Origin: Candidatus Binatus sp.
GTDB taxonomy: Bacteria; Desulfobacterota; Binatia; DP-6
DNA length: 64,000 bases
Direction of reading: 5' to 3'
NCBI GenBank assembly: GCA_035476275.1
Contig: DATILR010000440.1
Span: forward strand, 1,284-65,283
The notes under the pieces are model-generated. The model had not been told where the DNA came from. It did no database searches and saw only the letters and a program-made list of their open reading frames with translations. Made by a program: the position numbers and the translations under genes. Every line of letters starts with the position of its first letter. Position 1 is the first letter of the stretch. This document shows positions 5,166 to 64,000 of the stretch, piece after piece.

Positions 5166-5240
5166 GGGTCGGCGGTTGCATCCGCGACCGCGCGTCGTGC
5201 GTAGGGAGGGCGGGCGATGCATGCCCGAAGGAGGTCTACG

Positions 5241-5609: not shown

Positions 5610-5649
5610 GAATCGGTCGTCCCTCTGACGACCTGGGCCGCGCCTGAGG

Positions 5650-7187: not shown

Positions 7188-7263
7188 GGTGCGCCCAGGG
7201 TGATTCGAACACCCGACCTTCTGATTCGTAGTCAGACGCTCTATCCAACTGAGCTATGGGCGC
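7188..7263 (-). tRNA. tRNA-Arg (anticodon ACG)
   Basis: Reverse complement folds as a cloverleaf: acceptor stem GCGCCCA/TGGGCGC, anticodon stem TCTGA/TCAGA with loop CTACGAA, T-loop GGTGTTCGAATCACC. CCA is not fully encoded. Confidence 0.9.
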
Positions 7264-7575
7264 GCGGTGAGAAGCGCCTTGTACTTGCTCGACTTTCGCC
7301 GGTCAACCGAGCGCCGCTCCACCGACTTTCGCCTCCTCGCCCGTCTGATTGTCCGCCTTCTGTCCGTGTTCGCCCTCCGTCACCTCCTTCCGAGCGCGGC
7401 GGGCGCCCTCGAGTCGACGTGGGCGGAGGAAGCAGGCGCTGTAAAACGCCTTCCGATGAAGGCTGCGTCGCTGCTGTTACAGCAGCGCGCCGGCGAATGG
7501 CGCGCCGTCCTCAAGGAGACCCTTCACCGGCTTCCCCTCCCAAGAGACGACCGGCGACCCGCGCCGGCTCGTGCA

Positions 7576-35928: not shown

Positions 35929-36258
35929 CGTGCGCGGAGCCTATCGCGCACGCGGAGCACCCGTCAAACGAAGTTACAGGCAACGGTTCTAGACAGCCTA
36001 TAGCCCCCTCACGCTTCGCCAGAGCCTTTCTAACCGAAGTTCGCGGATCTGAGGATACGGCCGCTCGGGGATGGGTGCTAGCGACGGCGGACCACGAGCC
36101 ACTTGATCGGACGAGCGCGGGACGCCTACTGTGGGGCTCATGTGGAAGCGGGTCGTCCTCGGCGGTGGCGTTCAAGAAGGCCCGGAACTTCTCCCTCTTC
36201 GACGCTCACTACGAGCCGTGCCGGTAGCCGCCTGACGCGCGACCGCCTCTCTCCGGCA

Positions 36259-38649: not shown

Positions 38650-41643
38650 TCAGGGATGGGGCAGGACCCGTTGCGCGAACAGCGACCGGTAGGTGAGGTA
38701 TCCGTCGCTCAGATCGTCGAACCGTGAATCCAGGTACACCACGATCGAGGACGTTCCGGTATCGGCGATCGCCGCCGGACCGGCGGTGCCGGTCGCGCTG
38801 AGAAGCAATCCCGGCGTCTCGCTGTCGACGACCGTCCCGTTCGGGCTCAGGCGCGCGACGAAGGAGACGACCGGCGTCCCCTCGGGCGAGGTGACGGCGA
38901 GGAACGGCACCACCCAGTCGGTGCCGTCGAAGGCGACGTCGGTCGGCGCGAGGTAGTTGAGCGGCGCCAGGTTGGTGTTGAGGCGGATGCCGTCGGGGTC
39001 GAGCGACGTCCCGCCCGCCACCCGCGCCGCGATCGCGTCGTAGCCGCAGAGCACGGGCCCCGCGCAGAGATTGATCCGTTCCACCAGCACGAGGTACCCG
39101 GAGCCGTCGGTGGCGACGCGGACGAGCTCGTCGGCGTCGCGCAGGAGGTGCAGCGGCGGCGCGTCCATCACGGTGGTGCCCGCCAGCCGGATGCCGGCGA
39201 TCTTGTCGATGTACTTGCCGACCGACGAGGTCTCGCCGTCGGCCTCCTGCCAGACGACCAGGCACTCACCCGTGATGCAGGCGATATCGGGCTCGACGAA
39301 CTGCGGGAACTTCCCGCCGCGCGCCGGATAGATCCGCGTCTTCCTCCCTGCCGGCAGGCCGTTCTGCAGGACGCGGAGCGCGTAGATCTTGCTCCGGTCC
39401 GTGAAGACGTTGACGTCGCCCCAGAGGACCGTGTAGCCGCTGCCGTCGAAGCCGACCCGGACGCCGTAGAGCCCGCGCCGGTCGGGAAGCTTCTTGGACT
39501 CGACCGTCACGGCCGCTCCCAGGGGCTGGCCGTCCGGTCCGATGCGCATCACCTTCACGTCGTAGTAGTTGGCGAAGCGCCGCCCGATATCGACCTCGGT
39601 CCACGCGACCCACGCGACGAGGAAGTTCTGCCCGTCACCCGCGACGGAGACCGAGTACGCGAGCGGATAGGAGTCGGCGAGCTGGAAAGGCCCGGTCACC
39701 GTCCCCGTGTCGTCGATGCGCGCGCTCTGGAGGCCTTGCCCCCCGCTCCAGAAGACGAGCGAGCCGAGCGAACTCTGGATGACCCGCGGACCGCTCTCGA
39801 GGTAGCCGAAGTCCTGCACGACCATGATCTCGCCGCCCACGCGCTGGTCGCTGTGTACCTGCAGCGCGGCGGGGATGCTGCCGCCGCCGTCGACGGCGGA
39901 GGGCGCCGACAGGTCGACGGAACCCGACAGGCCGCCCACCGGGAGTCCCGTCGTGTCGAGCGCGATCGGCACCTTCGCCGACGTGGTGCCGCTCGTGCTG
40001 TCGGGGACGAGCCAGGACGGGCTCGCGAGCGTCCAGGGAACGGACCCGTTGCTGGTGAACGCGAAGTCGGCCGCCGCAGCGGACGGCCGCGTCTCGCCGA
40101 CGAACCCGTGCAGGTCGATCTGATGCGTCCGGAAGCGCGTCGTCACCGGCACCGGATCGAGGACGTGGGAGGCGTCGATCTGTCCCCATCCGAAGTAGGG
40201 ATTCCACGGCTGACCCACGTATCCCGGGTAGCCCGGCTGCGTGGCGTTCAGCTCGAGTTGCCAGCGCACCTCCTCGGGCGTGAGGCCGGGGAGCCCGGAG
40301 AGGATGAGCGCGCTCAGGCCCGCGGCGTGCGGCGATGCCATGCTCGTGCCCGACAGCCGGAGGTAGCTCTGCCCCACCCGCGCCCCGAACTGATCGACGG
40401 GGGACACGGAGCTCCGCGTCGAGAGCACGTCGACACCGGGCGCCGCAACCGACAGCGCGTTGCCGTGGTTCGAGAAGGAGGCGATCTGCCCGTTCGGACT
40501 GATCGCCCCGACGGCGATCACGCCCTCGATCCCCGCGGGCTCGAAATTGTCCACGCTGGCGGCCGAGTTCCCGGCCGCGGCCACCACCACGGCGCCGAGG
40601 CCGTTGGCCATGGCGACCGCGTCAACGAGCACCTGGCTGATGCCGAAGCCGCCCCAGCTGTTGTTGAGGACGTCGGCCCCGTTCTCCGCCGCGTACTCGA
40701 TCGCCTGAGCGAGGTCCGAGGTGAAGCCGCTGCCGTTCGCATCGAGGCCCCGGACGGGCATGATCTTCGCCCCCCAGGCCATCCCGACCACCCCCACGTT
40801 GTTGCTGCCGACGGCGGCGGCCGTGCCGGCCACGTGCGTCCCGTGTCCATGGAGATCCATCGGGTTCGCATCGTCCTGCACGAAGTCCCAGCCCGCGACG
40901 TCGTCGATGAAGCCGTTGCCGTCGTCGTCGATGCCGTTGCCGGGGATCTCTCCGGGGTTGGTCCAGATGTTGGCGGCGAGGTCGGGATGATTCGGATCGA
41001 CGCCGGTGTCGATCACCGCCACCACCGTGCCGCTGCCGTGCGCGAGGTCCCATCCCTGATCGGCATTGCTCGCGTGCAGGCCCCACAGATCCCCGTAGCC
41101 CTGCCCCCACGTGCCGGAGCTCGAGAAGTAGGGATCGTTGGGCGTGAAGGTGGTCTGCACGACGTAGTCGGGCTGGGCGTACACCACCTCGGGATCGGCG
41201 GCATAGCGCGCCGCCGCGGCAGCAACGTCGGTCCCGGCGGGCAGCTCGAGGACATAGACGTTCGACAGGTCGGGGACGGCTGCTCCCTTCGGGATGCGGG
41301 CCGAGCGGGCCGGATATTTGCCAAGGACCACATCGATCCGCTGCCGGTAGGTCGTCTTGCGATCCGCGTCGAGCTCGTGGTCTCGGAGGAAGAGCGGGTG
41401 CGCCTCGCGTACCCCGAACGAGCGGTTCAACCGATCGAGCGAATCGCGGCCCGTCGCGCTCTTGAACGGGAGCCCCTCGGCGACGAGGCAGCGGGCGCAG
41501 GTCGTCACCGACGAGCGGAACTTCACGATCAGGCGCGTCGGGTGGGCGGGCAGGACCTGATCGAGCACCCGGGGTGTGGGAAGAGCGGTACGCGCGGAGG
41601 AAACCGCCAGCACGGCGGCAAGCAAGAACGGCACCTTCTTCAC
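38650..41643 (-). CDS. Secreted S8 (subtilisin-family) serine peptidase with an about 550-aa C-terminal extension (998 aa)
   Basis: GTG start after a GAGGGAGG RBS. Signal peptide (VKKVPFLLAAVLAVSSA). Catalytic triad motifs (VIDTGVD, HGHGTHVAGT, GTSMASPHAAG). A long non-catalytic C-terminal region. Confidence 0.85.
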   Translation of the reverse strand: MKKVPFLLAAVLAVSSARTALPTPRVLDQVLPAHPTRLIVKFRSSVTTCARCLVAEGLPFKSATGRDSLDRLNRSFGVREAHPLFLRDHELDADRKTTYRQRIDVVLGKYPARSARIPKGAAVPDLSNVYVLELPAGTDVAAAAARYAADPEVVYAQPDYVVQTTFTPNDPYFSSSGTWGQGYGDLWGLHASNADQGWDLAHGSGTVVAVIDTGVDPNHPDLAANIWTNPGEIPGNGIDDDGNGFIDDVAGWDFVQDDANPMDLHGHGTHVAGTAAAVGSNNVGVVGMAWGAKIMPVRGLDANGSGFTSDLAQAIEYAAENGADVLNNSWGGFGISQVLVDAVAMANGLGAVVVAAAGNSAASVDNFEPAGIEGVIAVGAISPNGQIASFSNHGNALSVAAPGVDVLSTRSSVSPVDQFGARVGQSYLRLSGTSMASPHAAGLSALILSGLPGLTPEEVRWQLELNATQPGYPGYVGQPWNPYFGWGQIDASHVLDPVPVTTRFRTHQIDLHGFVGETRPSAAAADFAFTSNGSVPWTLASPSWLVPDSTSGTTSAKVPIALDTTGLPVGGLSGSVDLSAPSAVDGGGSIPAALQVHSDQRVGGEIMVVQDFGYLESGPRVIQSSLGSLVFWSGGQGLQSARIDDTGTVTGPFQLADSYPLAYSVSVAGDGQNFLVAWVAWTEVDIGRRFANYYDVKVMRIGPDGQPLGAAVTVESKKLPDRRGLYGVRVGFDGSGYTVLWGDVNVFTDRSKIYALRVLQNGLPAGRKTRIYPARGGKFPQFVEPDIACITGECLVVWQEADGETSSVGKYIDKIAGIRLAGTTVMDAPPLHLLRDADELVRVATDGSGYLVLVERINLCAGPVLCGYDAIAARVAGGTSLDPDGIRLNTNLAPLNYLAPTDVAFDGTDWVVPFLAVTSPEGTPVVSFVARLSPNGTVVDSETPGLLLSATGTAGPAAIADTGTSSIVVYLDSRFDDLSDGYLTYRSLFAQRVLPHP

Positions 41644-41723
41644 CGGAGCCTCCCTCTGTGGTCGGTCGAGGGCGCATGATCGCAGAGGGCGCACCTCGCA
41701 AGCAAGGAAAATGTCCCTCTGGC

Positions 41724-42962
41724 TCACGGAAACGGGACGCGAACCGTCAGGCGGGTCCCGCTTTCGGAGGAGATGGCGACCGTCCCACCAAGCGCGCGCG
41801 CCCGCTCGCGAATCCCGACCAGCCCGGTCCCCGGGCGGCTCGCACCGCCGCGCGGGAGACCGACGCCGTTGTCCTCCACTTCCAGGCGGAGCTCGCCGGC
41901 GACCGAGGCCAGCCGGACCCGCACGCGGCTCGCCTCCGCGTGACGCGCCACGTTGGTCAGGGCTTCCTGCGTGATCCGGTAGAGCGCCACCTCGACGTCG
42001 GCCGGCAGGCGCTCGGGAAGATCGTCGGCACTGAAGGTGATGGCGATCTGGTGCCGCTCGGCGAACGCTTTCAGGTGGCCGTCGAGGGAGGGCACGAGAC
42101 CGAAGTCGTCGAGCACCGACGGTCGGAGGAGCTGCGACAGCTCGCGCATGGCGCTCAGCGTCTTCGAAACGAGATGGCGCGCCTCGCCGATGCGCGAGCG
42201 GAGCGCGGCCTCGTCCCCCGGCGGCTGCCGCTCGACGAGCCAGAGATACGCCATCACCGCCGTGAGCGATTGCCCGAGCTCGTCGTGGAGCTCGCGCGAG
42301 AGCCGCCGGCGCTCTTCCTCCTGGACGGACATCAAGCGCGACGAGAGGGCGGCGAGCTCGCTCTGTCGTCGCGCCAGACCCACGCGGAGCTCGCCCAGGG
42401 CGTGCGCGCTCCACACGGCGATGATCGAGCCGGCGACGAGCGCTCCGAGGCTCACCAGGAACGGATCGGCGTCACCGATGGCGGCCCGGCCGACGATCGA
42501 GAAGGCGAGACAGAAGATGCCGCACACGGCGACCGTGCGTCGCGTGTCCCACGAGAAGAGCACGGTGCTGCCCACGAGGAGGCAGATGAGCCCCGCCACG
42601 TTCAGCGACTGGTGGTGCTGGTACGTGTAGACGCGGAGGTAGGTGTTGAAGCCGAAGCCCGCGATCAGGAGCAGCCCCAGACGGTCGGCCTGGCGCCGGC
42701 CCACGGCGGTGAAGCTGGCCAGCAGAACTGCCGTGGCGATGGCCGTGTGGAAGGCGGCGCTCACCAGCATCCAGAATCGATCGGGGTCGGGAAAGTTGAT
42801 GTACTCGATCGGAAAGAAGAGCAGGCCCGCGGCGAGGGCGATCAGGGCCGCGGTGCGCACCCGGGGCAGGAGTGCGGGATACTCGCCCTCGGCGAGGGCG
42901 GTCGGGGCCGGGCGCCCGTTGTCCGCGCGCCCGTTCGTGGGGCTCCGCGCGGACGGTTCCAC
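41724..42962 (-). CDS. Membrane sensor histidine kinase (HisKA_3 type), no cognate regulator nearby
   Basis: About 5 N-terminal TM helices. H-box SRELHDELGQSLT. HATPase_c with GTGLVGIRERA. Confidence 0.8.
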   Translation of the reverse strand: MEPSARSPTNGRADNGRPAPTALAEGEYPALLPRVRTAALIALAAGLLFFPIEYINFPDPDRFWMLVSAAFHTAIATAVLLASFTAVGRRQADRLGLLLIAGFGFNTYLRVYTYQHHQSLNVAGLICLLVGSTVLFSWDTRRTVAVCGIFCLAFSIVGRAAIGDADPFLVSLGALVAGSIIAVWSAHALGELRVGLARRQSELAALSSRLMSVQEEERRRLSRELHDELGQSLTAVMAYLWLVERQPPGDEAALRSRIGEARHLVSKTLSAMRELSQLLRPSVLDDFGLVPSLDGHLKAFAERHQIAITFSADDLPERLPADVEVALYRITQEALTNVARHAEASRVRVRLASVAGELRLEVEDNGVGLPRGGASRPGTGLVGIRERARALGGTVAISSESGTRLTVRVPFP

Positions 42963-50496: not shown

Positions 50497-51198
50497 TCAC
50501 GTTCCGATCCGTGAGGCGACAATCACCTCGGACGTGAGTCCCCACGCTGAGACGACTTCGTGATGCCGAACCCGCCAAAGGTCCTCACCGAGGAACTCCC
50601 GTAGCTCGATCGGCCGACAGCCACCCACCAACTTCGGGTTGAAGCGGTGAACCGTCTCCCATGCCGCCGAGACGAGCTTCGTCAGGAAGCCGTGGCCGCG
50701 CGTGAGGCTCACCAGGCAGAGCAGCCCCTCCCGCCAAAGGAGGCGATGCGCGTCGCCCAGTATGGCCGTGATGGCTGCCTCGCTCATGAGATCGAGGACA
50801 TAGGTCGAGACGAAGCGGTCGTAGGCACCGGAACAGCACTGCGGCGGGGTCACCCCTTCGGAGCAAACAACCTCCGCTCGGTTCGCCCACGACTGCAACC
50901 GCTCGCGGGTGAGCGCTACCATGGTGGTAGAAATGTCCACCCCGAGATAGCGGCAGTTGTCGGGCATGAGGCTCGTCAACAGCCGCGCGGCGAGCCGTCC
51001 CGTGCCACACCCGAACTCGAAGATCGACTGTGCGTGCTGGAAGTCGGAGTGGGCGATGAGCGGGGCAAGGGCGCGATCCTCGTAGAACGCCTGCGCGTCC
51101 TGCTTGGCACCGAAGCGATCATAGAACACTCGGGCTTCGGCGGCGGTGAGCGTGCGGCCGTACGGGCGGCGCGATCCGTGCGGATCGCCCTGTGTCAT
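50497..51198 (-). CDS. SAM-dependent methyltransferase, last gene of the ars operon (possible arsenite methyltransferase-like)
   Basis: SAM motif (IFEFGCGTGRLA). Several cysteines including a CC pair. Its ATG overlaps the arsC stop as ATGA. Confidence 0.75.
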   Translation of the reverse strand: MTQGDPHGSRRPYGRTLTAAEARVFYDRFGAKQDAQAFYEDRALAPLIAHSDFQHAQSIFEFGCGTGRLAARLLTSLMPDNCRYLGVDISTTMVALTRERLQSWANRAEVVCSEGVTPPQCCSGAYDRFVSTYVLDLMSEAAITAILGDAHRLLWREGLLCLVSLTRGHGFLTKLVSAAWETVHRFNPKLVGGCRPIELREFLGEDLWRVRHHEVVSAWGLTSEVIVASRIGT

Positions 51199-51602
51199 CG
51201 CTCGCTGCCTTGCCATCGCTGGGCGGCGACCAGCAGTTCGACCCGCGCTCGAATCTCGTCGCGGATCGCACGCACCCGCTCGGGTGACTGGCCCTTCGGA
51301 TCCGGGAGTTCCCAATCCTCACGTTGCACACCCCGGACCACCGGGCACGTTTCGCCGCACCCCATCGTCACAAGGAGCGTCGCCTGGGACCCAAGCTCGG
51401 GCGTCAGGCGACGAGGGTGGACGTGGCTGAGGTCCAGGCCGACTTCTCGCATCGCGTGGACGACTTCCGGATGGACGGCTTCCGCAGGCTCGGTCCCGGC
51501 TGAGATGGCGCTAACCTTGGTAGGGTCAGCCAGCGCATTGAAGAAGGCTGCTGCCATCTGTGAGCGGCCCGCGTTGTGAACGCAGGCGAAAAGAACCGTC
51601 AT
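51195..51602 (-). CDS. arsC: Arsenate reductase, LMW-PTP/thioredoxin-coupled type
   Basis: P-loop CVHNAGRSQMA (CX5R) at the N-terminus. LMW phosphatase fold with downstream Cys residues. Overlaps the aquaporin stop by 1 nt. Confidence 0.85.
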   Translation of the reverse strand: MTVLFACVHNAGRSQMAAAFFNALADPTKVSAISAGTEPAEAVHPEVVHAMREVGLDLSHVHPRRLTPELGSQATLLVTMGCGETCPVVRGVQREDWELPDPKGQSPERVRAIRDEIRARVELLVAAQRWQGSER

Positions 51603-52336
51603 CACACCCGATCGCCCGCCTGAATCACAGGCTCGGCCTCTTTGCAGACAACGCGCGGCACGACACCTGGATGCACCAGAAGCCACCGAAAGAGTCCCGT
51701 GGCAGCCGCCGCTCCGAGAAGCTCTGCCGCAATGAAGCCCGGCACGTCAGCCGGACGGATGCCGGCGAAGGTGTCGGTCAAGGCGCGAGCCATCGTGACG
51801 GCGGGATTGGCGAACGACGTGGACGCCGTGAACCAGTAGGCCGCCGTGATGTACGCCCCGACGGCGAACGCGACGGCCGTCGAGGAGCGAAGCCGCGAGC
51901 AGCCCCAGATGACGCTGAGCAGGCCGAATGTCGCGATGAACTCGCTGAGGAGCTGCGCCGGCCCGTGGCGCACGTGCTGCGAGAGCGAGAACGCGGGCAG
52001 CTCGAACATCAGGTCAGCGACCGCGACGCCGACAACGGCGCCGATTATCTGGGCCGCAACATACCCGGCCGCTTCCCGCCACGGGAGCCCTGCCTGCGAG
52101 GCGTCGGCGAACGTCACGGCTGGGTTGAAGTGGGCGCCCGAGATTGGCCCGAACGTCAAGATGAGGGCCACGAGCGCGGCACCGGTTGCGAGCGTGTTCG
52201 CGAGCAGCGCCACTGCCACGTTCCCGCCAGCGAGCCGCTCGCCCATGATGCCCGAGCCGACGACGGCGGCGAGCAGCATCCCGGACCCGACGCCTTCGGC
52301 GAGGAGCCGGCGGGCCAGGGTCATCGACGGGGTCAC
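51602..52336 (-). CDS. aqpS: MIP-family aquaglyceroporin (arsenite channel AqpS-like)
   Basis: Two NPA boxes (HFNPAVT and FANPAVT) and six TM helices. Sits inside the ars operon. ATGA overlap with the arsR stop. Confidence 0.9.
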   Translation of the reverse strand: MTPSMTLARRLLAEGVGSGMLLAAVVGSGIMGERLAGGNVAVALLANTLATGAALVALILTFGPISGAHFNPAVTFADASQAGLPWREAAGYVAAQIIGAVVGVAVADLMFELPAFSLSQHVRHGPAQLLSEFIATFGLLSVIWGCSRLRSSTAVAFAVGAYITAAYWFTASTSFANPAVTMARALTDTFAGIRPADVPGFIAAELLGAAAATGLFRWLLVHPGVVPRVVCKEAEPVIQAGDRV

Positions 52337-52698
52337 GCGGAGCGCTTCGTGGCGACCTTGTCAGCGGGCAGCGCGAGCGCTTGCCGGAGTGCTTCGACGC
52401 GTTCCGGGACCAACCGGTAGAACATCCACGTTCCCCGGCGCTCGCGCGCAAGAAGCCCGGCCTCCGTCAGGACCCTGAGATGGTGGCTCACGGTCGGCTG
52501 CGCCAGCCCGAGCGGGCCGACGAGATTGCAAACGCACGCCTCCGAACCGCTCTGTGCGGCGATGTAACTGAGCAGCCGCAAGCGTCCAGGGTCGGCGATC
52601 GCCTTGAACGCCGTCGCGAGCGCCTCGGCATCGTTGCGTCCAAGGCGGGCGCGCAGCACGGGGGCGCAGCAGCGGGGCGCGTCCTCCTTGATCGACAT
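52333..52698 (-). CDS. arsR: ArsR/SmtB-family metalloregulatory repressor
   Basis: Winged-HTH with the metal-site cysteines (ACVCNLV) and the ArsR signature. Confidence 0.9.
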   Translation of the reverse strand: MSIKEDAPRCCAPVLRARLGRNDAEALATAFKAIADPGRLRLLSYIAAQSGSEACVCNLVGPLGLAQPTVSHHLRVLTEAGLLARERRGTWMFYRLVPERVEALRQALALPADKVATKRSA

Positions 52699-56218: not shown

Positions 56219-57268
56219 TCAGTGCTGGTCGTCGAGCTTCATGGCCGCGCCGCGGCGGGCGTATACGTCATCGCCCGAGTAGCTCACCTCGAGCACCTCG
56301 TGGCCGGCGTACATCGCCTTCCGGAACCCGTAGCCGACGGACGGCTCCTGCGGCGTCGCGTCCGTCGTGTAATCCCAGCGCGGGCGGGGCTCCCACGTCG
56401 TCGCGCCGTCGCGCAGCGTCTCGACGTCCCATACGAACAGCTGGAAGACGCCGAGGAGGTTCTGGGGCACGTCGGGCCGGAAGAAGAACTCCGTCGCGAT
56501 GGTGACGTCGCCGGGCGGGGCGATGTAGCGGCCGCGGCTCTCGTCGATCAGGAAGACAACGTCGACCGCCGGCTCGCCAAACGGCCGGATCGTTAGCCGC
56601 CACGGCCAGTAGCGGCCGGCGGGGAGGATGGGCGTCGGGACGCCGGCCGGGGTGAAGTGATGGCCCCAGCCGGGCTGCGCCGCCATCGTCACGAGCGGCT
56701 GGCGGACGAGCGTCAGCTCGAGGTCGCGGCCGAGGATCGAGCCCTGGTGGATCGCCGCGATCGACGTGATCGCGGCGTGCTCCGGCGTCGTGCGATCGAT
56801 GCCGGCGCACTGCCGCGGGAAGAGCCCGCGGGCCGCGGCGGTCGTCGGCTGGAGGCCGACGCGCCCGACGCCGTGGTAGTCGACGTTCCGGAGCCAGAGC
56901 GACGGCTCGTCGGGATGGCGGAGGCCCTGCTCCGGCCAGCCGGCGTGGCCGAGGTCGTCGGCGTACTCGAGCCAGTCGGTCGCGACGTCCGTGTCGATCG
57001 TACCGAGGCCGGAGCCGCCGGGCGTTGCGGTGCGGATGCCGAAGAAGACGAGCTTCCGGTTGACGTGCCCGGAGGAGGCGTTGACGCGCAGGTGGTAGCG
57101 CAGGCCGACCGTGTCGGCCGGGACGTCGGCCAGCTTCGCGGAGACGGTGCCGCCGTCGCCGGCGCGGTGCAGGAGCGCGTCGCCCGGCCCGGGAGCGCCG
57201 AGGCTGCGCGCGTAGGCGGGAACCCACGCTGCGAACAGGACGAGGAGCAGGATCGATCGCCACGGCAT
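56219..57268 (-). CDS. Hypothetical secreted protein (349 aa) immediately downstream of the porin-cytochrome genes
   Basis: Signal peptide (MPWRSILLLVLFAAWVPAYA). No heme motifs and no recognisable family. Same strand as the cytochrome cluster, 126 bp after the porin. Confidence 0.55.
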   Translation of the reverse strand: MPWRSILLLVLFAAWVPAYARSLGAPGPGDALLHRAGDGGTVSAKLADVPADTVGLRYHLRVNASSGHVNRKLVFFGIRTATPGGSGLGTIDTDVATDWLEYADDLGHAGWPEQGLRHPDEPSLWLRNVDYHGVGRVGLQPTTAAARGLFPRQCAGIDRTTPEHAAITSIAAIHQGSILGRDLELTLVRQPLVTMAAQPGWGHHFTPAGVPTPILPAGRYWPWRLTIRPFGEPAVDVVFLIDESRGRYIAPPGDVTIATEFFFRPDVPQNLLGVFQLFVWDVETLRDGATTWEPRPRWDYTTDATPQEPSVGYGFRKAMYAGHEVLEVSYSGDDVYARRGAAMKLDDQH

Positions 57269-57393: not shown

Positions 57394-59418
57394 TCAGAAC
57401 TCAAACCGGCGCGTCACCCGGAACTCGAGGATGGTTGCGTCGTAGTCGTTCCGCGACAGCGGATTCTGCGAATACGAGATCCGTCGTGCCTCGATCCCGG
57501 GCTCGAGGAAAGGATGGTGGAAGGCGACGAACGCGCCGGCGTCGATCCGGTCGAGATCGTACGATCCGCGCTGCGGCAACCCTGGCTCGAAGCTCGGTGC
57601 GAGCTTGTTGTCGGAGCGGAACCAGGCGAGGTTCCATCCCGTCGACCAGGGGTATCCGAGGAGCGTGAAGTCGTACGTCAGGGTGCTCGTGATCACGTCC
57701 TCGCTGCCGGACTGCACCGAGCCCCTCGGCTGGTAGCGTGGCGCGATCAGGATCTGGTTGCTGGTATCGAGGTCACGCCGCGTGTAACCGGCAACGGCGG
57801 TCAGGCCGGCGGCCGGCGTGAGGCTCACCGACACGGTATCGGCGAACCGCTGGACGCGCCCGTGGAAGTCGGAGTTCTCGAAGCTGTCGGCGGTGAACTC
57901 GTACGAGAGCTGGAGCCAGTCGCGCGGGCGGAGGTGGAAGCCCGTCTTGCCGCGGTTCTGGAAGGTGTAGGCGATCTCGCGCGACGGGAGAGCGGGCACG
58001 CTCTGCGAGTTGCCCGGGATGGTCCACGGGTCGTCGATCTGGACGTTGTCGTAGCGGAAGAAGAGATCGAGCCAGCGCGCCGGCTGCCAGCGGCCCTCGG
58101 CGACGGCGCCCACGAGGTCGGTCGAGATGTCCTGGTTCGCGAGCGAGAACGCCGCGTCCCGGCGCGCGTACTGGATGCCGGCGCTGAGCGCGAGGGACGT
58201 GGTCGGCCGCACCTCGACGTCCGAGGTGACGCGATTCAGGCGCACGTGGAAGCGCGTGGACGTCTGCAGGCGGCCGGGATTGAGGAGCGCGTCGAGGTCG
58301 CCGTCCTGGCTGCGATCGTCGTAGCGATAGTCCAGGTGAAGCGTGGCGATGGAGGTCAGGCGCACGCTGGCGCCGAGGTCGGCCAGCTGCGTGCTGAGCG
58401 AGGCGTCGCCGGTGTCGAAGCGGGTGGAGGGCCCGTTGTCGGACGGGATCGTGCTGGTACCGTTGCGGAAGCGGGTGCGACTCTCGTCGAGGCTGGCGTT
58501 GGCGTAGACGTAGCCGCCGGTCAGCTCGACGCGATCGCCGACGGGCCGGCTCACCCGCACCCGCGTGATGGGGATGTCGATGTGGTCGTCTTCGGTGCTC
58601 TGCCAGCTCGTGAGCGTGAAGCCTTGCGCTGGGTCTAGGCCGTTGGGGTCGGTGGGACCGTGCAGGCCGTAGGTGCGGCTCACGCGGCGGTACTGTTGCT
58701 CGAGGAAGAAGCCGGTGCCGAGCGCGGTGAACTCGGTCCCGACGCTCCCGACGTTCGTCACCTGGCGCTGCGGCGCCTGCACGAGGAAGTTGCCACCACC
58801 GGGGACCAAGACCGTCGAGGTCCCGTCGCCCTCCAGCTGGTAGAGACGGTAGCCCAGGATGAGAGTCGGGAGGTTCTTCGGGTGGAGGCGCAGCTCGGCG
58901 ATCCCGTTGGTGCGGATCAGGTCGAAGTCGTGGAGGTCGTCCAGGCGGAGATCGCCCGGCACCGTCGCATCGAAGAGGCGTGGGACCTCGTAGAAGTACT
59001 TCGAGCGGATGAAGTCGACGCGCAGGTCCCACAGCGCCCGGTCCTCGGCGTTGAGCACGAAGCGGGACGCGGGCTCGTCCCCCGGGGTGTCCACCTCGAG
59101 GTGGAAGCGGTCGAGCGGCGCCTTGCCGGGCTCGCGAGCCTCGCTGTCCAGCGTGAAGAGGAAGAGGCGGCCGCCAGAGCGCAGGTTGTAGTCCTCGCGG
59201 TACTTGTCCTTCGACCCGTCGATGTCGACCAGTCGGTAGCCCGAAGCGACCGTCGCCGTCGAACGGTAGGGACGCTCCGGCGGGCTCGGGGGAGCCGTCT
59301 CTTCAGGTGTGCTCGCGGCCGGCTCGCCGCCGGCAGCTTCCTCGGCGGGCGCGCGGGTGCCTCCAAGGACGGCGAGCAGGGCGAGCGAAACGACCAGACG
59401 GGCCCCGCACCGCCACAT
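57394..59418 (-). CDS. Outer-membrane beta-barrel protein, MtrB/PioB/MtoB-like porin of a porin-cytochrome complex (674 aa)
   Basis: Signal peptide (MWRCGARLVVSLALLAVLGG). Long protein rich in alternating amphipathic beta-strand-like segments. C-terminal aromatic beta-signal ending ...RVTRRFEF. The start ATG overlaps the decaheme gene's stop (ATGA). Confidence 0.72.
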   Translation of the reverse strand: MWRCGARLVVSLALLAVLGGTRAPAEEAAGGEPAASTPEETAPPSPPERPYRSTATVASGYRLVDIDGSKDKYREDYNLRSGGRLFLFTLDSEAREPGKAPLDRFHLEVDTPGDEPASRFVLNAEDRALWDLRVDFIRSKYFYEVPRLFDATVPGDLRLDDLHDFDLIRTNGIAELRLHPKNLPTLILGYRLYQLEGDGTSTVLVPGGGNFLVQAPQRQVTNVGSVGTEFTALGTGFFLEQQYRRVSRTYGLHGPTDPNGLDPAQGFTLTSWQSTEDDHIDIPITRVRVSRPVGDRVELTGGYVYANASLDESRTRFRNGTSTIPSDNGPSTRFDTGDASLSTQLADLGASVRLTSIATLHLDYRYDDRSQDGDLDALLNPGRLQTSTRFHVRLNRVTSDVEVRPTTSLALSAGIQYARRDAAFSLANQDISTDLVGAVAEGRWQPARWLDLFFRYDNVQIDDPWTIPGNSQSVPALPSREIAYTFQNRGKTGFHLRPRDWLQLSYEFTADSFENSDFHGRVQRFADTVSVSLTPAAGLTAVAGYTRRDLDTSNQILIAPRYQPRGSVQSGSEDVITSTLTYDFTLLGYPWSTGWNLAWFRSDNKLAPSFEPGLPQRGSYDLDRIDAGAFVAFHHPFLEPGIEARRISYSQNPLSRNDYDATILEFRVTRRFEF

Positions 59419-60362
59419 CACGGCTCCAGGAAGAACGCCTGGCTGTTCGAGCCGTGGATCGCCGTGTGGCAGCGCGTGCAATCGCGGTAGCTCGGCTGCA
59501 CGTGGCTCGCCGGCGTCACGGCGTGACACTGGTAGCAGAGCTGGGCGACCTGCTGGTAGCGGAGCAGATGGCGGTTCGCGCTACCGTGTGGCTCGTGGCA
59601 GCTCCCGCAGCCCTCGAGGGTGAGCCCGATGTGCTCGAAGATGAACGGGCCCTCGACCTCGCCGTGGCAGCGGAAGCACGTCCGCTGCTCGGTGTCGCGC
59701 AGCAGCGATCGCTCGGACGTGCCGTGGGGCTGGTGGCAGTCGATGCACGACACCACGCCTTCGGGCACCTTGTGATGCTCGGGCAGCGCGAAGGTCGAGC
59801 GCACGGCCGCATGGCAACGGTAGCAGAGCGCCACCGTCGTCTCGTCGCCACGCCAGGTCGCGCCGCGCATCGGCTGGGGCAGCGGATCGCCCACCTTCAG
59901 CATGAGGCGTGCGCTCCCCCCGTGCGGATCGTGGCAGTCGGTGCAGGAAACGTCGGCGCGCGCGTGCTCGCTGGCCGCGAAGCCGTGCAGGGCGGATTCC
60001 TTGCCGTGACAGCGGAGGCACGGCGCCGCACGCTCGGACGCGGACTCGGACGGGTCGAAGGTACGCAAGTTCCCTGCCTTGCCCCCCCCGCCGTCGACAT
60101 GGGCCTGTCCCGCGCCGTGGCAGGCCTCGCAGCCGCGTTGGTCGGGTGGGCGCGCGGGGTCGTCGAGCGCGCGGGCGTGGGGTGACTTGCCGTAGCTCTC
60201 GCTCCACTCCGCGTGGCAGGCGGCGCAGACCTCGGGTCCCGCGAACGCAGCGGGATCGGGTGGCGGGCCGGGCGCGGGTGCCGGCTGCCGTGGCGAGAGG
60301 TCCGGAAGCCCGCAAGCCAGTGCCACCGCCACCGCGAAGATGGGAACCCAGGCCCGCCTCAC
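59418..60362 (-). CDS. Decaheme c-type cytochrome, MtrA/PioA/MtoA-like (314 aa, 10 CxxCH)
   Basis: Ten CxxCH motifs (CAACH, CEACH, CLRCH, CTDCH, CYRCH, CIDCH, CFRCH, CGSCH, CYQCH, CTRCH) in about 300 aa. Signal peptide with possible lipobox (AVALAC). The GTG start overlaps the upstream cytochrome's stop as GTGA. Confidence 0.85.
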   Translation of the reverse strand: MRRAWVPIFAVAVALACGLPDLSPRQPAPAPGPPPDPAAFAGPEVCAACHAEWSESYGKSPHARALDDPARPPDQRGCEACHGAGQAHVDGGGGKAGNLRTFDPSESASERAAPCLRCHGKESALHGFAASEHARADVSCTDCHDPHGGSARLMLKVGDPLPQPMRGATWRGDETTVALCYRCHAAVRSTFALPEHHKVPEGVVSCIDCHQPHGTSERSLLRDTEQRTCFRCHGEVEGPFIFEHIGLTLEGCGSCHEPHGSANRHLLRYQQVAQLCYQCHAVTPASHVQPSYRDCTRCHTAIHGSNSQAFFLEP

Positions 60363-61441
60363 GGGCGGAACCCGTCGTCGTGGCGGTGACAACCGAGGCA
60401 GGAGTACGTGAAATGCGGCGAGCCGGTGCCGTCCATACGATAGTGGTTCGTCGTCGTGTGGCAGGTCTCGCAGACGCCGGTGCCCGGCGCCGAGGCGCTG
60501 GCAAAGCTGCCGTCGGCCAGGCCGGTGAGGTTGTCGAACACGATCGGCTTGTCGGCGCCGCTCGGCGTGGTGATCGTCTCACGCACGAGCTTGATGTTGC
60601 TCGAGCCATGCGGGTCGTGGCACTGCACGCACGGCAGCGCCACCCCGTTCGGCGCGTGGGTCTGTGTCGACGGATGACAGGTCTGGCAGGCCTCGATCGC
60701 ACGGTGGCCCGGACCCGGCGTCGGATTCTGTTCGGCGTGACAGGTCGTGCAGGTCTGGGGTGCGTGGCCGCTCGGCATCGCGTGCCTCGCCGCCTCGTCC
60801 TGATGGCAGAGCATGCAGTTGTCTTCGGTGGCGACGGGCGCGAACGCCTGCGTGTGGTCGTGGCAGAGAGGGCAGTTTTCACTGAAGTGGGAATCGCCGT
60901 GGCCGCTCGCGGGATAGAAATCGGTCTTGCGGTGACAGACCTCGCACATGCCGCTGCCGGGATCGGTCGGGCTCGCCAGCCCGCCCGGCGCCAGGCCGGC
61001 ATCGACCGTGAAACTCATGTCGTAGAGGTGCTGCCGCCACCGCACCAGGTTGCGCACCAGATGGAGGTTCGCGGTGCCGTGGGGGTCGTGGCAGTTGAGG
61101 CAGGTGCGTGTCTGTCGGCGGCCTCGCTGACCGGCGGTCTTGGCGGGATGCCCGTGGACGTCATCGTGGCAGTCGGCGCAGTTCGGGATCGTGCGGTGGC
61201 GCTGGCCGACGTGGCCCGGCCGGCGATCGCCGTGGCAGGCGATGCAGTCGAGCGCGGCAGCGTGGCCGGCAGGGAACGTGTAGGCCAGCGCCAGGTCGTA
61301 GTGGCAGCTCCCGCACACGCCGGCGCCGGGCGGTGGCGCAGTCTGGGCGGCCGCGCTGCGCGGTATGGGCACACCCATTCCGGCGAGCAGTGCGACCAGC
61401 CTGACCCATGCGGCCAGGCTTCTGTGTTCCCGGACCGGCAT
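60359..61441 (-). CDS. Dodecaheme c-type cytochrome (360 aa, 12 CxxCH), signal peptide
   Basis: Twelve CxxCH motifs (CGSCH, CIACH, CADCH, CLNCH, CEVCH, CPLCH, CMLCH, CTTCH, CQTCH, CVQCH, CETCH, CLGCH). N-terminal signal peptide (LAAWVRLVALLAGMGVPIPRSAAAQ). Confidence 0.85.
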   Translation of the reverse strand: MPVREHRSLAAWVRLVALLAGMGVPIPRSAAAQTAPPPGAGVCGSCHYDLALAYTFPAGHAAALDCIACHGDRRPGHVGQRHRTIPNCADCHDDVHGHPAKTAGQRGRRQTRTCLNCHDPHGTANLHLVRNLVRWRQHLYDMSFTVDAGLAPGGLASPTDPGSGMCEVCHRKTDFYPASGHGDSHFSENCPLCHDHTQAFAPVATEDNCMLCHQDEAARHAMPSGHAPQTCTTCHAEQNPTPGPGHRAIEACQTCHPSTQTHAPNGVALPCVQCHDPHGSSNIKLVRETITTPSGADKPIVFDNLTGLADGSFASASAPGTGVCETCHTTTNHYRMDGTGSPHFTYSCLGCHRHDDGFRP

Positions 61442-61455
61442 GCGATCTCGGATCT

Positions 61456-64000
61456 TCAGGGCAACGCGTTCGCGTGTACCGTCGACACGGCGAAGGTCCT
61501 ACCCTCACCGTGACAGGTGGCGCACGCTTCGACTCCCCCCGGTGCGGTGTTCGTTGCCGCGTGGGCCGCGGTGCTCGCAGCGTCGTGACAGCTAAGGCAG
61601 GCATCCTGGATCGGCGGAGTCGACCCCACCGGCGTATCCACGCCCGCCATGATCTCGGACTGCCGGGTCGGCAACACGTCCGGCGGTAACGGCAACAGCT
61701 GGGTCTCCGGCATGTGGCACTGCTCGCAGTCGGCCCGGGTGCCGGGGAAGCGGACCTCGCCGAAGTTGTTCACCGAGCCGTTGAATCCGTAGACGACGTA
61801 CGGCTGCTCGGTCAGCATCTCGCCCGTGTGGACCTTGTGGAGCAGGTGCTTGAGCACGATGGGCTCCGTGGCCGGGTCGGCACCGCTGACGCCGATCCGC
61901 CGCGCGACGTCGGTCATGTTCGGGTTGTGGCACACCACGCAGTACTCGACGCGGTTGCGCAGGTTGCCGTGAACGCTGAAGCCCTGGGAGAAGACCCCGT
62001 GACACGAGGCGCATTTCGCCTGGTCCACCACCGCACGACGCGGGACGACGGCGGAGGCGTCGACGCTGAAGTCGCGCACCACGTTCTGGATCGCCTCCTG
62101 CACGGTCTGCCCGTTGATCGTGACGTTGCGTCGGGCTTCCATGCCGACGCGCCAGGTTCCCGTGCCGCCGGCGGGAATGCCGTTGGCCACCGTCGTCGTG
62201 TAGGTGAACACGCCGCTGCCGTCGGGACCCGTGAGCGTCCCGTCCGCGCTGCTGCCGATGATGGCTGGGGTGGTCACGGGTGGTATCAGAGCGCCGAAGT
62301 CGCTCGATGGGCCGCTGATAGCGAGCGCCAGGGTGCTCAGACCGGCGAGGCTCGTGAGCGGTGTCCCCGCGTCATCGGTCAGGCGGAACGTCACGGTGAC
62401 TGCCCCGCCCGGGCTGCCGCTCGCGGAGAGCAGCTCGCCTACCAGGCCGGTGAGCTGCATCGAGCGCTGCGGCACCGTGTGCGCGCCCGCCACGGAGAGG
62501 CCGAACTCGGATCCGCTCGGTACGTGGCAGAGCGTCGCACAGAAGGCCTCCGGCTGGGGGCCGGCGGCGTGGTTCTTTCCCGGAGGCCCGGCCGCCGTCG
62601 ACATCTCGCTCGGATTCACGTTGTCGTGGCAGCCCGTGCACGCCGAGGTGGAAGCCTTCGCGAGGTGATCGCCGGCCGTGGCGCCCTGGCCGTGGCACAC
62701 CGCGCAGGTCCGGATGTCCTGCGGGAAGCCGACGCCCGTGACGGTCGTCCCCGTGCAGGTGCCGTTCGGGCAGTCGCCGTCGGTGCTGCAGGGCACGCCG
62801 GCCAGCGCGCCGCCGGCGCAGGCGCTGACCTTCTCGGCGAAAACCGCCGGCGAGCGGCCGATGATCTCGTACTTGGCGCCGAGCGCTCCGTTGACGACGC
62901 TCGGCAGGTTCTTCCCGTGATGGATCCGGTGGATCATCTGCTGCAGCTCGAGCGAGTTGCCGCTCTCGGGGTCGAAGCCCTGGTCGGTGTGACAGAGCTG
63001 GCAGAGGCCGACCTCGCGCCGTCCCCCGCCGTGCTCGGCCAGCGGGTCATGGCAGCCGTTGCATTGCGCCGTGGTGGTGACCTCGCGGACGGTAGAAACG
63101 GCCCCGCCGGCCGGCACGAAGTGGAACAGCGGGTTCGCGTACAGCGTCCGCGTTGGGAGGCTGCGCTCGATCTGGCCCCCGACGGTGTGCGTGGCCGTGG
63201 CGGGGAAGCCGGCGGGCAGGGCGGTGGCGAAGGTGTACGTGTAGATCCCCCTCATGGCGTCCACCGTGGCGAGCGAGCCGCCGCTGTCGTATCCGGGCTG
63301 ACCGGGCGTCGGCACGATGTAGTTCCGGTAGCGCGTGAAGGCGACGGTGTTGCTCTCGGTCGTCGTGGCATCGACGTCGAGATGCGCGATGGTGAACCGG
63401 ACGCGCGCCTGCGACGGGTCGGAGGTCGAGGCCGTGGAGGGGACGAGCGGGACTCCCTCGGCATCGGTCAGGGTGAAGGTGATCGTGACGACGCCCCCCG
63501 CGCTCACCGTGGCGCCCGTGATCTGCGAGGTCAGACCGGCGCCGGGGGGGCCCGGCGGGATGGTGGTGAGCGTCGTGCTGGTCGTGGTAGTCACCGTCGT
63601 GGTCGTTGGCCCGCCGGCGACGGTGGTCGGGACGCAGGTGAGCTTGTAGGTGTCCGAGTCGGTCGTCCCGCCCGCCTTGGCGACGGCTTTCACCGTCACC
63701 TGCCTGGCCGGCACGACGCCCTTCTTGTTGGGTCCCGCGAGCGGGACGGAGAGGAGCGCCGTCGGCGAGCACACCGTCGCGTCGGTCGGCAGCGGCACGG
63801 CGGCCAGCGCTGCCTCCAGCGGTGAGGTGTCGATCGACGAGGATTGCTTCACCGTGGCTTGATTCACCAGACGGGGCTGACAGCTGCGCGTCGGCTGGTT
63901 CAGACAGAAGCTCACCGCGAACAGACAGACGCCGTTGCGGTGTCCGTCGAAATCGCAGACGTCGCCGTCCGCACAGGAGATGCCCTTCGGCGTCTTGCCG
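61456..64000 (-). CDS. Large multiheme c-type cytochrome (at least 9 CxxCH plus one CxxxCH), N-terminus beyond the window edge
   Basis: The frame is open from 64000 to the stop at 61456; the tool's start at 63915 is just the first GTG. Heme motifs: CNGCH, CQLCH, CAVCH, CTGCH, CATLCH (CX3CH), CASCH, CVVCH, CEQCH, CLSCH, CATCH. A Thr-rich linker (PTTTTVTTTTSTTLTT) separates an N-terminal Cys-containing region from the heme domain. Confidence 0.8.
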   Translation of the reverse strand, partial: GKTPKGISCADGDVCDFDGHRNGVCLFAVSFCLNQPTRSCQPRLVNQATVKQSSSIDTSPLEAALAAVPLPTDATVCSPTALLSVPLAGPNKKGVVPARQVTVKAVAKAGGTTDSDTYKLTCVPTTVAGGPTTTTVTTTTSTTLTTIPPGPPGAGLTSQITGATVSAGGVVTITFTLTDAEGVPLVPSTASTSDPSQARVRFTIAHLDVDATTTESNTVAFTRYRNYIVPTPGQPGYDSGGSLATVDAMRGIYTYTFATALPAGFPATATHTVGGQIERSLPTRTLYANPLFHFVPAGGAVSTVREVTTTAQCNGCHDPLAEHGGGRREVGLCQLCHTDQGFDPESGNSLELQQMIHRIHHGKNLPSVVNGALGAKYEIIGRSPAVFAEKVSACAGGALAGVPCSTDGDCPNGTCTGTTVTGVGFPQDIRTCAVCHGQGATAGDHLAKASTSACTGCHDNVNPSEMSTAAGPPGKNHAAGPQPEAFCATLCHVPSGSEFGLSVAGAHTVPQRSMQLTGLVGELLSASGSPGGAVTVTFRLTDDAGTPLTSLAGLSTLALAISGPSSDFGALIPPVTTPAIIGSSADGTLTGPDGSGVFTYTTTVANGIPAGGTGTWRVGMEARRNVTINGQTVQEAIQNVVRDFSVDASAVVPRRAVVDQAKCASCHGVFSQGFSVHGNLRNRVEYCVVCHNPNMTDVARRIGVSGADPATEPIVLKHLLHKVHTGEMLTEQPYVVYGFNGSVNNFGEVRFPGTRADCEQCHMPETQLLPLPPDVLPTRQSEIMAGVDTPVGSTPPIQDACLSCHDAASTAAHAATNTAPGGVEACATCHGEGRTFAVSTVHANALP

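Follow-up and report, generated by a model that had tools for sequence, protein, structure and literature searches.

A probable Mtr-type electron conduit with an additional dodecaheme cytochrome in a Candidatus Binatia bacterium

Candidatus Binatia are an abundant uncultured lineage of soils and sediments, and of the routes by which bacteria exchange electrons with minerals and electrodes, Mtr-type conduits are the best understood. A string of multiheme cytochrome genes ending in a putative outer-membrane barrel, found in a Candidatus Binatia bacterium (GTDB Desulfobacterota_B), raises the question of whether this lineage carries such a conduit, to which family it would belong and in which direction electrons would pass through it. 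We conclude that the region very probably encodes an Mtr-type trans-outer-membrane electron conduit. The window analysed here is the whole 64,000-nt stretch of DNA, in which the relevant features are as follows.

61456–64000, minus strand: gene A, predicted outer-surface decaheme of the OmcA/MtrC family; frame open to the window edge, 5′-truncated
63634–64000, minus strand: Cys-rich N-terminal domain of A, conserved in L003, L008, L010, L012 and L025
63550–63633, minus strand: Thr-rich low-complexity linker of A (VPTTVAGGPTTTTVTTTTSTTLTT...)
60359–61441, minus strand: gene B, predicted periplasmic 12-heme cytochrome, 360 aa, 12 CXXCH
59418–60362, minus strand: gene C, predicted MtrA/DmsE-family decaheme, 314 aa, GTG start, 10 CXXCH
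57394–59418, minus strand: gene D, predicted MtrB-like outer-membrane beta-barrel, 674 aa, no heme motif, C-terminus ...RRFEF

All four minus-strand ORFs named in the original prediction are present, point in the same direction and are tightly packed, with stops and starts that overlap or nearly do so, although the junctions differ in part from those first described: the B/C junction is indeed a GTGA stop/start overlap, but the gap between A and B is 14 nt, not 15 bp, and the C/D junction, given as an ATGA overlap, reads GTGATG, where D overlaps C by 1 nt if it starts at the ATG and by GTGA if it starts at the GTG just before. Heme-binding motifs are concentrated in A–C far beyond chance (31 CXXCH in 1,524 aa, compared with 0 in the remaining likely genes of the window, 14,951 aa in all), and export signals are predicted on all four proteins (for A from the full-length sequence in contig L025), so that every cytochrome carries the signal peptide on which the predicted conduit depended. 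No promoter-like or terminator-like site was detected within A–D; the sole promoter-like site lies 3′ of D, ahead of the non-conserved gene E (56219–57268), which encodes a secreted 349-aa protein downstream of D. We considered E as a fifth gene of the module and rejected it because it has no Pfam match, has no homologue in any of 23 related loci from species-representative genomes (L025, nearly identical to the window, is the one place where it recurs) and has the promoter-like site in front of it.

An exact-match look-up of B returned only a 4.1-kb contig that ends within the window, and a barrel relative at 99% (P0001) led to the extension of the locus. Contig L025 is 99.3% identical to the window at ~54.9–64.0 kb and completes the large cytochrome that had been described as partial: full-length A has 893 aa, of which 847 of 893 codons are inside the window, and thus only 46 N-terminal residues lie beyond its edge. 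In L025 the gene string continues, 7 nt upstream of A and outside the window, with a gene for a 111-aa monoheme cytochrome c; the proposed linkage of four genes therefore stands, but as a lower bound. A monoheme cytochrome c gene immediately precedes A in L025, L003 and L012, and the L025 protein is of class I and aligns best with c-552, with a His at the c-552 Met-ligand position in this single alignment. Further upstream, L025 holds a gene represented by a 42-residue C-terminal fragment that has no resemblance to the NapC/NirT-like family of L002, L003 and L012, these three being the only loci with a NapC/NirT-like membrane cytochrome gene (outside the window; marginal score of 24.2 against 24.1 bits). 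Related loci also encode cytochrome b plus multiheme modules.

The family of the module is set by gene A. Its product scores 381.1 bits against TIGR03507 (cutoff 209.3), matches PF22113 (E 4.6e-45) and, weakly, OmcA-like_N, and finds MtrF (3pmq, 6.5e-21), OmcA, UndA and MtrC by phmmer; by these matches it is a genuine OmcA/MtrC-family member. The broader assignment to Mtr/Pio/Mto/Pcc architectures thus holds as regards an electron conduit, but membership of A in this family makes the module specifically MtrCAB-type and not Pio/Mto/Pcc-type in general. The large multiheme protein had been credited with at least 10 hemes, and the count is exactly 10, made up of nine CXXCH sites and one CX3CH (CATLCH) at heme 5, which aligns with the fifth CXXCH of homologues and so makes A a decaheme. 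From the N terminus, a Cys-rich domain is followed by the Thr-rich linker, a beta-domain and a pentaheme domain (hemes 1–5), and after heme 5 by a second beta-domain without Cys and a second pentaheme domain; hemes 2 and 3 are separated by a 4-Cys insert. The Cys-rich N-terminal domain has no Pfam or NCBIfam match, shares the conserved motif GKTPKGVSCADGDxCDxDGxRxGVC...FCxN and contains seven Cys inside the window and eight in full-length homologues. Full-length A (L025) and its homologues carry type-I signals, with a lipobox-like match in 3 of 78 full-length homologues, and 75 of 91 A homologues have no Cys between hemes 5 and 6, that is, no CX8C in domain III.

The two periplasmic cytochromes have the lengths and heme counts given in the original prediction. 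C, described there as MtrA-like, passes the curated DmsE/MtrA model TIGR03508 (205.5 bits, cutoff 192.2) and matches 6r2q_A by phmmer (1.7e-26), and is by these scores an MtrA-family decaheme. It has a predicted lipoprotein signal (…AVALA-C-G), with the lipobox conserved in L001, L002, L003, L010 and L012, followed by a Pro-rich linker of ~25 aa ahead of heme 1. B has a type-I signal peptide without a lipobox and matches no curated Pfam or NCBIfam family above cutoff. Its two halves are 36% identical (E 3e-36), which makes B a tandemly duplicated form of a hexaheme module (~160 aa) that is widespread, and profile comparison identifies it as a remote homologue of MtrA (hhalign against the MtrA-like family 99.4%, E 4.5e-21; best PDB match of the B profile 6r2q_A, 1.7e-9). 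Heme density is 30 aa per heme. Elsewhere the same module forms single-module lipoproteins of ~200 aa and concatemers of 18, 24 and up to >100 hemes, an occurrence in many architectures that marks it as a general-purpose building block.

For D, structural modelling agreed with the proposed beta-barrel: the AF2 model (pLDDT 80.5) has about 26 strands, counted as 26–27 strand elements, and its top Foldseek match is MtrB (6r2q_B, E 6e-18, TM 0.66/0.68), at about 13% identity in the structural alignment. Strand 1 is preceded by a signal peptide and ~25 aa of disordered, Pro/Glu-rich sequence, the C-terminal ...RRFEF is a beta-signal, and the only Cys sits inside the signal peptide, so that an N-terminal CXXC is absent. 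The proposed homology to MtrB/PioB porins did not appear in D itself, which scores 15.5 bits (E 0.0066) against PF11854 (MtrB_PioB), below the gathering cutoff of 23, but it did appear in its family: 30 of 41 members match PF11854 (best E 2.4e-8), and hhalign aligns the family end to end with Acidobacteriota/Thermoanaerobaculia barrels (99.9%, E 1.4e-31, 567 columns), of which three of the four aligned clear the Pfam threshold and each of the four is encoded right after an MtrA-like decaheme. Since the D family profile had no match among PDB sequences even at E 10, homology was shown via the fold search and these Pfam-positive intermediates; on this combined model and profile evidence, D is a remotely but demonstrably MtrB/PioB-homologous large barrel. 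Because D is labelled ‘hypothetical protein’ and falls below the Pfam cutoff, marker-gene surveys requiring MtrB will miss the clade.

B, C and D share one locus in all 12 Candidatus Binatia loci examined, and 11 of the 12 also encode a protein with heme domains of the MtrC/MtrF type, be it an MtrC homologue or another; L007 has no MtrC-type protein within the fetched flanks. In 10 of the 12, B is flanked by MtrC and MtrA or immediately precedes MtrA; in L005 and L009 it is several kb away from C–D or encoded on the other strand. The order seen in the window, with B between A and C, recurs in L001, L002, L003, L010, L012 and L025; other Binatia loci have their mtrC homologue on the opposite strand. 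Nine more distant loci have an MtrA-like gene directly upstream of the barrel match, and the Acidobacteriota/Thermoanaerobaculia loci (L013–L017) have the MtrA-barrel pair only, homologues of A and B being absent. The Thr-rich linker and N-terminal Cys domain of A are conserved across the clade and the dodecaheme is an MtrA-related duplication, both in keeping with the non-canonical variant that had been proposed.

By analogy with Shewanella baltica MtrCAB (PDB 6R2Q), C would run through the lumen of D as an insulated wire of hemes, its N-terminal lipid and Pro-rich linker holding it to the outer membrane’s inner leaflet, and A would dock at the external end of C/D and exchange electrons with insoluble or large extracellular partners (Fe/Mn minerals, humic matter, electrodes). 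B, soluble and heme-dense, may link the periplasmic end of C to inner-membrane or periplasmic carriers, either as a docked wire extension or as a high-capacity shuttle; candidate carriers known from relatives are the monoheme class-I cytochrome c of L025, the NapC/NirT-like cytochrome, and cytochrome b plus multiheme modules. One bolder form of this arrangement, which we regard as unlikely, has B join the lipid-anchored MtrA homologue end to end to give a fixed chain of ~22 hemes that spans the whole periplasm, a hard-wired trans-envelope nanowire. If true, the chain would reach 28 hemes in the 18-heme three-module variants, with wire length tuned by module number. Binatia would use such a nanowire where Shewanella has the diffusing shuttles STC/FccA, and, as the module is present in many Binatia MAGs, a soil lineage could then couple hydrocarbon/C1 oxidation to mineral or humic electron exchange.

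Two other readings would take this assembly apart. In one, there is no trans-membrane wire: D would be a generic porin or a transporter of the TonB-dependent type, and the cytochromes would be respiratory proteins in solution in the periplasm, as might be suggested by the sub-cutoff Pfam score of D and the many TonB-dependent transporters among its Foldseek matches. We consider this highly improbable because those transporters, which come next after MtrB, reach a TM of about 0.45 or lower, compared with 0.66–0.68 for MtrB; a plug domain is absent, with only ~25 disordered residues before strand 1; D is homologous by profile along its whole length to Pfam-positive MtrB/PioB barrels; and an MtrA-like decaheme precedes the barrel in every locus found. 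The identity of D as a TonB-dependent receptor was itself rejected on the low TM and the missing plug. In the other reading, the working unit is a plain MtrCAB and B, though encoded in the same operon, is a periplasmic cytochrome that acts on its own as an electron store or a reductase, which fits the presence of its hexaheme module in many other architectures and its displaced position in L005 and L009. We think this decidedly unlikely, since B keeps company with C–D in every Binatia locus examined and is adjacent to MtrA in 10, overlaps C by stop and start in the window, is homologous to MtrA itself and has no catalytic-type motif, all 12 sites being CXXCH with conserved His available as distal ligands.

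With B taken as part of an Mtr-type conduit, there remains the direction of flow. We give outward flow, that is, respiration of extracellular acceptors under O2 limitation, roughly an even chance. Inward flow, in which an MtoAB/PioAB-like uptake conduit would oxidise solid or dissolved donors such as Fe(II)/Mn(II)-bearing minerals or reduced humics and pass electrons through A, C and B to the monoheme cytochrome c and on to a terminal oxidase or the quinone pool, is in our view a credible prospect of clearly less than even chance, and flow in both directions, or something else, takes what remains. Uptake would suit the class-I monoheme cytochrome c (111 aa) encoded 7 nt upstream of A in L025, whose likeness to c-552 with a His in place of the Met ligand recalls MtoD, a class-1, c552-like, bis-His cytochrome (PMC4412085); however, the His/His ligation is read from one alignment. 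The NapC/NirT-like cytochrome of L002, L003 and L012 likewise matches the Sideroxydans gene set mtoA-mtoB-mtoD-cymA (PMC5566968), but that match clears its threshold by 0.1 bit, and NapC/NirT (CymA) and small cytochromes serve outward flow too in Shewanella. Also consistent with uptake are the oxic depths from which Binatia MAGs are mainly reported (PMC11264602) and the absence of the CX8C oxygen switch from the MtrC homologue. Against it stands the conservation here of an MtrC/OmcA-family protein, as the Mto/Pio systems described so far have no multiheme cytochrome outside the cell (PMC5566968).

Baker et al. 2022 (PMC8805035) listed Proteobacteria, Acidobacteria and Gemmatimonadetes as Mtr host phyla, and in 2025 the MtrCAB of Desulfuromonadia extended the range to Desulfobacterota (PMC12133095); Candidatus Binatia are outside the phyla listed in either paper. 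They are discussed mainly as aerobic methylotrophs and alkane degraders (PMC11264602), and in the searchable literature we found no paper linking Binatia/Binatota to Mtr or extracellular electron transfer. The conserved module suggests a part for Binatia in soil Fe/Mn/humic redox cycling, and its variant features, namely a dodecaheme of reusable hexaheme modules, a predicted lipid anchor on MtrA instead of MtrC and a Cys-rich domain on MtrC, bear on how the periplasm is crossed, how MtrC-type proteins are retained at the surface and how heme wires may be lengthened by module addition.

Among known systems, Shewanella MtrCAB shares with this locus all three protein families (OmcA/MtrC decaheme, DmsE/MtrA decaheme, MtrB-like barrel with about 26 strands), as well as the gene polarity C...A-B, the heme count of 10 + 10 and the four-part beta/pentaheme/beta/pentaheme layout of MtrC. 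It differs in that a 12-heme gene is here inserted between mtrC and mtrA; direct succession of mtrC, mtrA and mtrB was a search criterion in PMC8805035, and in the window gene B interrupts that succession. The barrel here, at ~13% identity to MtrB, is under the Pfam cutoff and lacks the N-terminal CXXC motif of Shewanella MtrB (PMC12175506). Whereas Shewanella MtrC has a lipoprotein anchor (LXXC) and, in its domain III, a CX8C disulfide (PMC9973256), the MtrC homologue here is a predicted non-lipoprotein without that CX8C and adds the Cys-rich N-terminal domain, the Thr-rich linker and the 4-Cys insert; in this subclade it is instead the MtrA homologue that is a predicted lipoprotein. A further difference from Shewanella is the MtoD-like monoheme cytochrome encoded upstream of A in L025.

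The Mto system of Sideroxydans lithotrophicus ES-1 (Fe(II) oxidation) shares, by gene content, a decaheme MtrA homologue, an MtrB/PioB-type porin and an operon-encoded class-I monoheme cytochrome c (here in L025, with His at the Met-ligand position), and its CymA/ImoA has a possible counterpart in the NapC/NirT-like membrane cytochrome of the relatives L002, L003 and L012, but it has neither an extracellular MtrC-type cytochrome nor a 12-heme periplasmic cytochrome. Geobacter porin-cytochrome complexes include OmaB-OmbB-OmcB and ExtABCD/ExtEFG, the latter with the dodecahemes ExtA/ExtG, and thus share an outer-membrane porin accompanied by a periplasmic dodecaheme. The dodecaheme GSU1996 shows that 12 hemes are enough for an extended wire of ~12 nm (title cited in PMC11492766); B comprises two MtrA-related hexaheme modules and not four c7-type triheme domains. 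Compared with Geobacter Pcc/Ext, the barrel here is MtrB-like and B has no lipobox, and we rejected membership in that group since B, C and D score far below cutoff for the NCBIfam GSU2203/GSU2204 models. Finally, the porin-multiheme clusters EET1-4 of Acidobacteriota/Verrucomicrobiota (bioRxiv 10.64898/2026.05.27.727921) and PCC3/PCC4 of Fe oxidisers, PCC4 being a porin with three periplasmic MHCs (PMC5566968), are likewise sequence-divergent porin-cytochrome clusters of uncultured soil and peat lineages with extra periplasmic multiheme cytochromes, which are repeat-built and very heme-dense; in contrast to these, the MtrC and MtrA homologues described here still pass the curated Mtr models.

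The right end of the window carries four minus-strand ORFs with high third-position G+C (overall G+C is ~70% across the window), whose products are called A to D here:

61456 to the window edge, minus strand: A, MtrC-like; 9 CXXCH motifs and one CX3CH
60359-61441, minus strand: B, the dodecaheme; 12 CXXCH motifs
59418-60362, minus strand: C, MtrA-like; 10 CXXCH motifs
57394-59418, minus strand: D, MtrB-like barrel; no heme motifs

The original prediction of four tightly linked minus-strand genes was borne out with only small corrections to ORFs, motif counts and junctions: B and C do share a GTGA overlap, but the gap between A and B is 14 nt rather than 15 and the C/D junction reads GTGATG rather than forming an ATGA overlap. 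No promoter-like or terminator-like sites were found within A–D. CXXCH motifs number 31 per 1,524 residues in A–C versus 0 per 14,951 residues across the window's remaining likely genes. The CX3CH of A (CATLCH) occupies the position of the fifth CXXCH in aligned homologues, so the 'at least 10 hemes' proposed for A can be refined to ten heme sites, making A a decaheme.

The identity of the barrel depends on several lines of evidence. On the Pfam MtrB_PioB model, D itself scored below the cutoff (15.5 versus 23 bits), but 30 of 41 D-family members matched PF11854 at E ≤ 0.1 (best E 2.4e-8); the D-family profile had no match among PDB sequences. With 41 homologues as input, AlphaFold gave a confident model (pLDDT 80.5) that is almost wholly beta, with 26-27 strand elements, and the model's top Foldseek match is MtrB in the solved MtrCAB complex of Shewanella baltica (6r2q_B; E 6e-18, TM 0.66/0.68), all remaining matches being TonB-dependent transporters at TM ~0.45 or lower. 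Distant barrels from Acidobacteriota and Thermoanaerobaculia metagenome-assembled genomes (MAGs), three of four of which exceed the Pfam cutoff (27-38 bits), show a 567-column alignment with the D family (99.9% probability, E 1.4e-31). The model and its structural matches, the PF11854 matches within the family and these Pfam-positive bridging barrels place D, as judged from sequence and predicted structure, within the MtrB/PioB superfamily as a divergent member, in support of the MtrB-type outer-membrane beta-barrel that had been proposed.

The two decahemes fall into curated families. C, predicted to be a ten-heme protein resembling MtrA, has its 10 CXXCH and passes the DmsE/MtrA model TIGR03508 (205.5 bits, cutoff 192.2); its match to 6R2Q is with chain A (1.7e-26), which is MtrA, although labelled otherwise in the file. 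A passes the OmcA/MtrC model TIGR03507 (381 bits, cutoff 209); PF22113 matches its two MtrC/MtrF pentaheme domains (4.6e-45), the OmcA-like N-domain matches weakly, and A finds MtrF, OmcA, UndA and MtrC among PDB sequences. A near-identical JGI contig (L025; 99.3% identity over 9.1 kb to window ~54.9-64.0 kb), which reaches 610 bp past the window edge, gives full-length A as 893 aa, 46 of them absent from the window, with a type-I signal peptide at its start. Both the Thr-rich linker and the separate N-terminal Cys domain ascribed to the large cytochrome are present; the latter is a conserved domain with eight free Cys and no family match, and a 4-Cys insert lies between hemes 2 and 3. In C, a Pro-rich linker comes after a predicted lipobox (AVALA-C-G); the subclade of the window (L001, L002, L003, L010 and L012) conserves both, whereas the MtrA homologue of a second Binatia subclade (L004, L006-L009) bears an ordinary signal peptide and no lipobox. 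A itself lacks a lipobox, and a lipobox-like match occurs in just 3 of 78 A homologues. From these sequences, the lipid anchor appears to have shifted from the MtrC homologue to the MtrA homologue in the window's subclade.

B, the extra 12-heme cytochrome of the original prediction, scored above cutoff for no curated family, and its 12 CXXCH can now be read as an MtrA-related hexaheme duplication. Its halves are 36% identical to each other (E 3e-36) and thus represent a tandem duplication of a ~160-residue hexaheme module. The B-family profile aligns with the MtrA-like family (99.4%, E 4.5e-21, 215 columns) and the best PDB sequence match is MtrA (1.7e-9); fold searches with the B model (pLDDT 79) were weak, MtrA nonetheless ranking first. 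The module is a widespread building block, found in 4,051 representative proteins at E ≤ 1e-3, for which neither Pfam nor NCBIfam holds a model. Its contexts (set P0361-P0508, for example P0385, P0394, P0407 and P0361) include lone-module hexaheme lipoproteins of ~200 aa, 18-heme (three-module) and 24-heme concatemers, and giant cytochromes such as P0369, with 129 CXXCH in 3,274 aa.

Homologues of D, B and A form hundreds of 90%-identity clusters, nearly all metagenomic; named ones are mostly Candidatus Binatia, and records label D homologues 'hypothetical protein' and B homologues 'CXXCH cytochrome' or 'cytochrome c3 family'. Scanning a single genome for each species gave 23 loci. B, C and D share a locus in all 12 Binatia-type loci (L001-L012), five of which match the window in having the order A-B-C-D. 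Of the remaining Binatia-type loci, some have the mtrC homologue on the opposite strand, L005 and L009 have another 10-heme protein in its place, and in L007 no such homologue was found within the fetched flanks. Nine remoter loci (Acidobacteriota, Thermoanaerobaculia and Thermodesulfobacteriota) place an MtrA-like decaheme directly upstream of the barrel match and contain no homologue of A or B. L002 has two MtrC-family genes upstream of B-C-D (634-3285 and 4936-7478); the distal copy has a Lys/Cys-rich N-terminal domain of another kind, and the proximal copy is apparently split over two frames at ~6351/6357, and a frameshift or an error in assembly could explain this. Some near relatives of the module (P0002, L001, L008) lie on contigs with the bin labels 'Candidatus Nitrosopolaris' (an archaeon), 'Actinomycetota' or 'Candidatus Limnocylindria'; given 75-89% identity to Binatia sequences and ~70% G+C, misbinning seems a better explanation for these than transfer.

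Elsewhere the window has ordinary chromosomal gene content (AcrB, AddAB-like helicase-nucleases, ClpB, a histidine kinase, an ars operon and a thiolase). Directly downstream of D, a secreted 349-aa protein (56219-57268, minus strand) with a promoter-like site in front lacks both a family match and a homologue among the 23 related loci, recurring only in L025. Two large secreted-type proteins (34187-36175 and 38650-42414, both minus strand), one lysyl-oxidase-like with a DUF7450 repeat and the other a 1,254-aa subtilase, flank an 845-aa ORF (36103-38640, plus strand) without a Pfam match. The candidate arsenic-resistance operon (50497-52698, minus strand) comprises:

52333-52698, minus strand: ArsR-family regulator
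51602-52336, minus strand: MIP/aquaglyceroporin channel
51195-51686, minus strand: LMW-PTP/ArsC-type arsenate reductase
50497-51315, minus strand: SAM methyltransferase, could be ArsM

With component families, export signals, tight linkage and conserved co-occurrence established, the architecture of 6R2Q suggests how the parts may fit together: C would occupy the lumen of D, A would cap the complex externally and B would join the periplasmic end of C to carriers encoded upstream. A 12-heme chain can span ~10-12 nm and B has 30 residues per heme, so B could be either an electron shuttle or a physical extension of the wire. The GSU1996 structure paper gives 12 nm in its title (listed in PMC11492766).

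The direction of electron flow is not readable from sequence. We give outward flow about an even chance; an MtrC-type surface cytochrome points to contact with solids of the kind made by metal reducers. Inward flow is nevertheless a serious, if less probable, alternative. In L025, a 111-aa class-I monoheme cytochrome c lies 7 nt upstream of A (within L025 3-466, just beyond window position 64000) and, in its best alignment, to cytochrome c-552, has His at the Met-ligand position; MtoD of Sideroxydans is likewise a class-1, c552-like, bis-His cytochrome (PMC4412085). Uptake would also be consistent with a NapC/NirT-like membrane cytochrome farther upstream in L002, L003 and L012, albeit at a marginal Pfam score, and with reports of Binatia from mostly oxic habitats (PMC11264602). 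Before the monoheme gene, L025 holds a gene end whose product finishes in a transmembrane helix, unlike the NapC/NirT-like gene at the same place in those three loci. In another Binatia subclade (L004, L006, L007 and L009), a cytochrome b (PF00033) and an 11-heme cytochrome of ~570-680 aa are encoded after the barrel gene or before the B-C-D genes (for example, L007 12136-15835), a pair that may provide the conduit with a quinol-oxidising inner-membrane module.

Compared with Shewanella MtrCAB, the system described here has an additional MtrA-related dodecaheme (B), and the position of the lipobox is reversed: Shewanella MtrC holds the LXXC lipid anchor (PMC9973256), whereas here the lipobox is on the MtrA homologue. 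A adds the 8-Cys N-terminal domain, the Thr-rich linker and the 4-Cys insert to the MtrC plan, while the CX8C redox switch in domain III of Shewanella MtrC (PMC9973256) contrasts with a domain III devoid of Cys in 75 of 91 A homologues. Similarly, the N-terminal CXXC of Shewanella MtrB (PMC12175506) is not present in D because mature D is Cys-free. A survey placed MtrCAB in Proteobacteria, Acidobacteria and Gemmatimonadetes (PMC8805035), Desulfobacterota were added later (PMC12133095), and divergent porin-cytochrome clusters have been reported in Acidobacteriota and Verrucomicrobiota (bioRxiv 10.64898/2026.05.27.727921); the searchable literature contained no link of Binatia to Mtr or extracellular electron transfer. 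Since automatic annotation pipelines give A and C their correct names already, this kind of system is already known; what is new is its conserved variant architecture and its host lineage.
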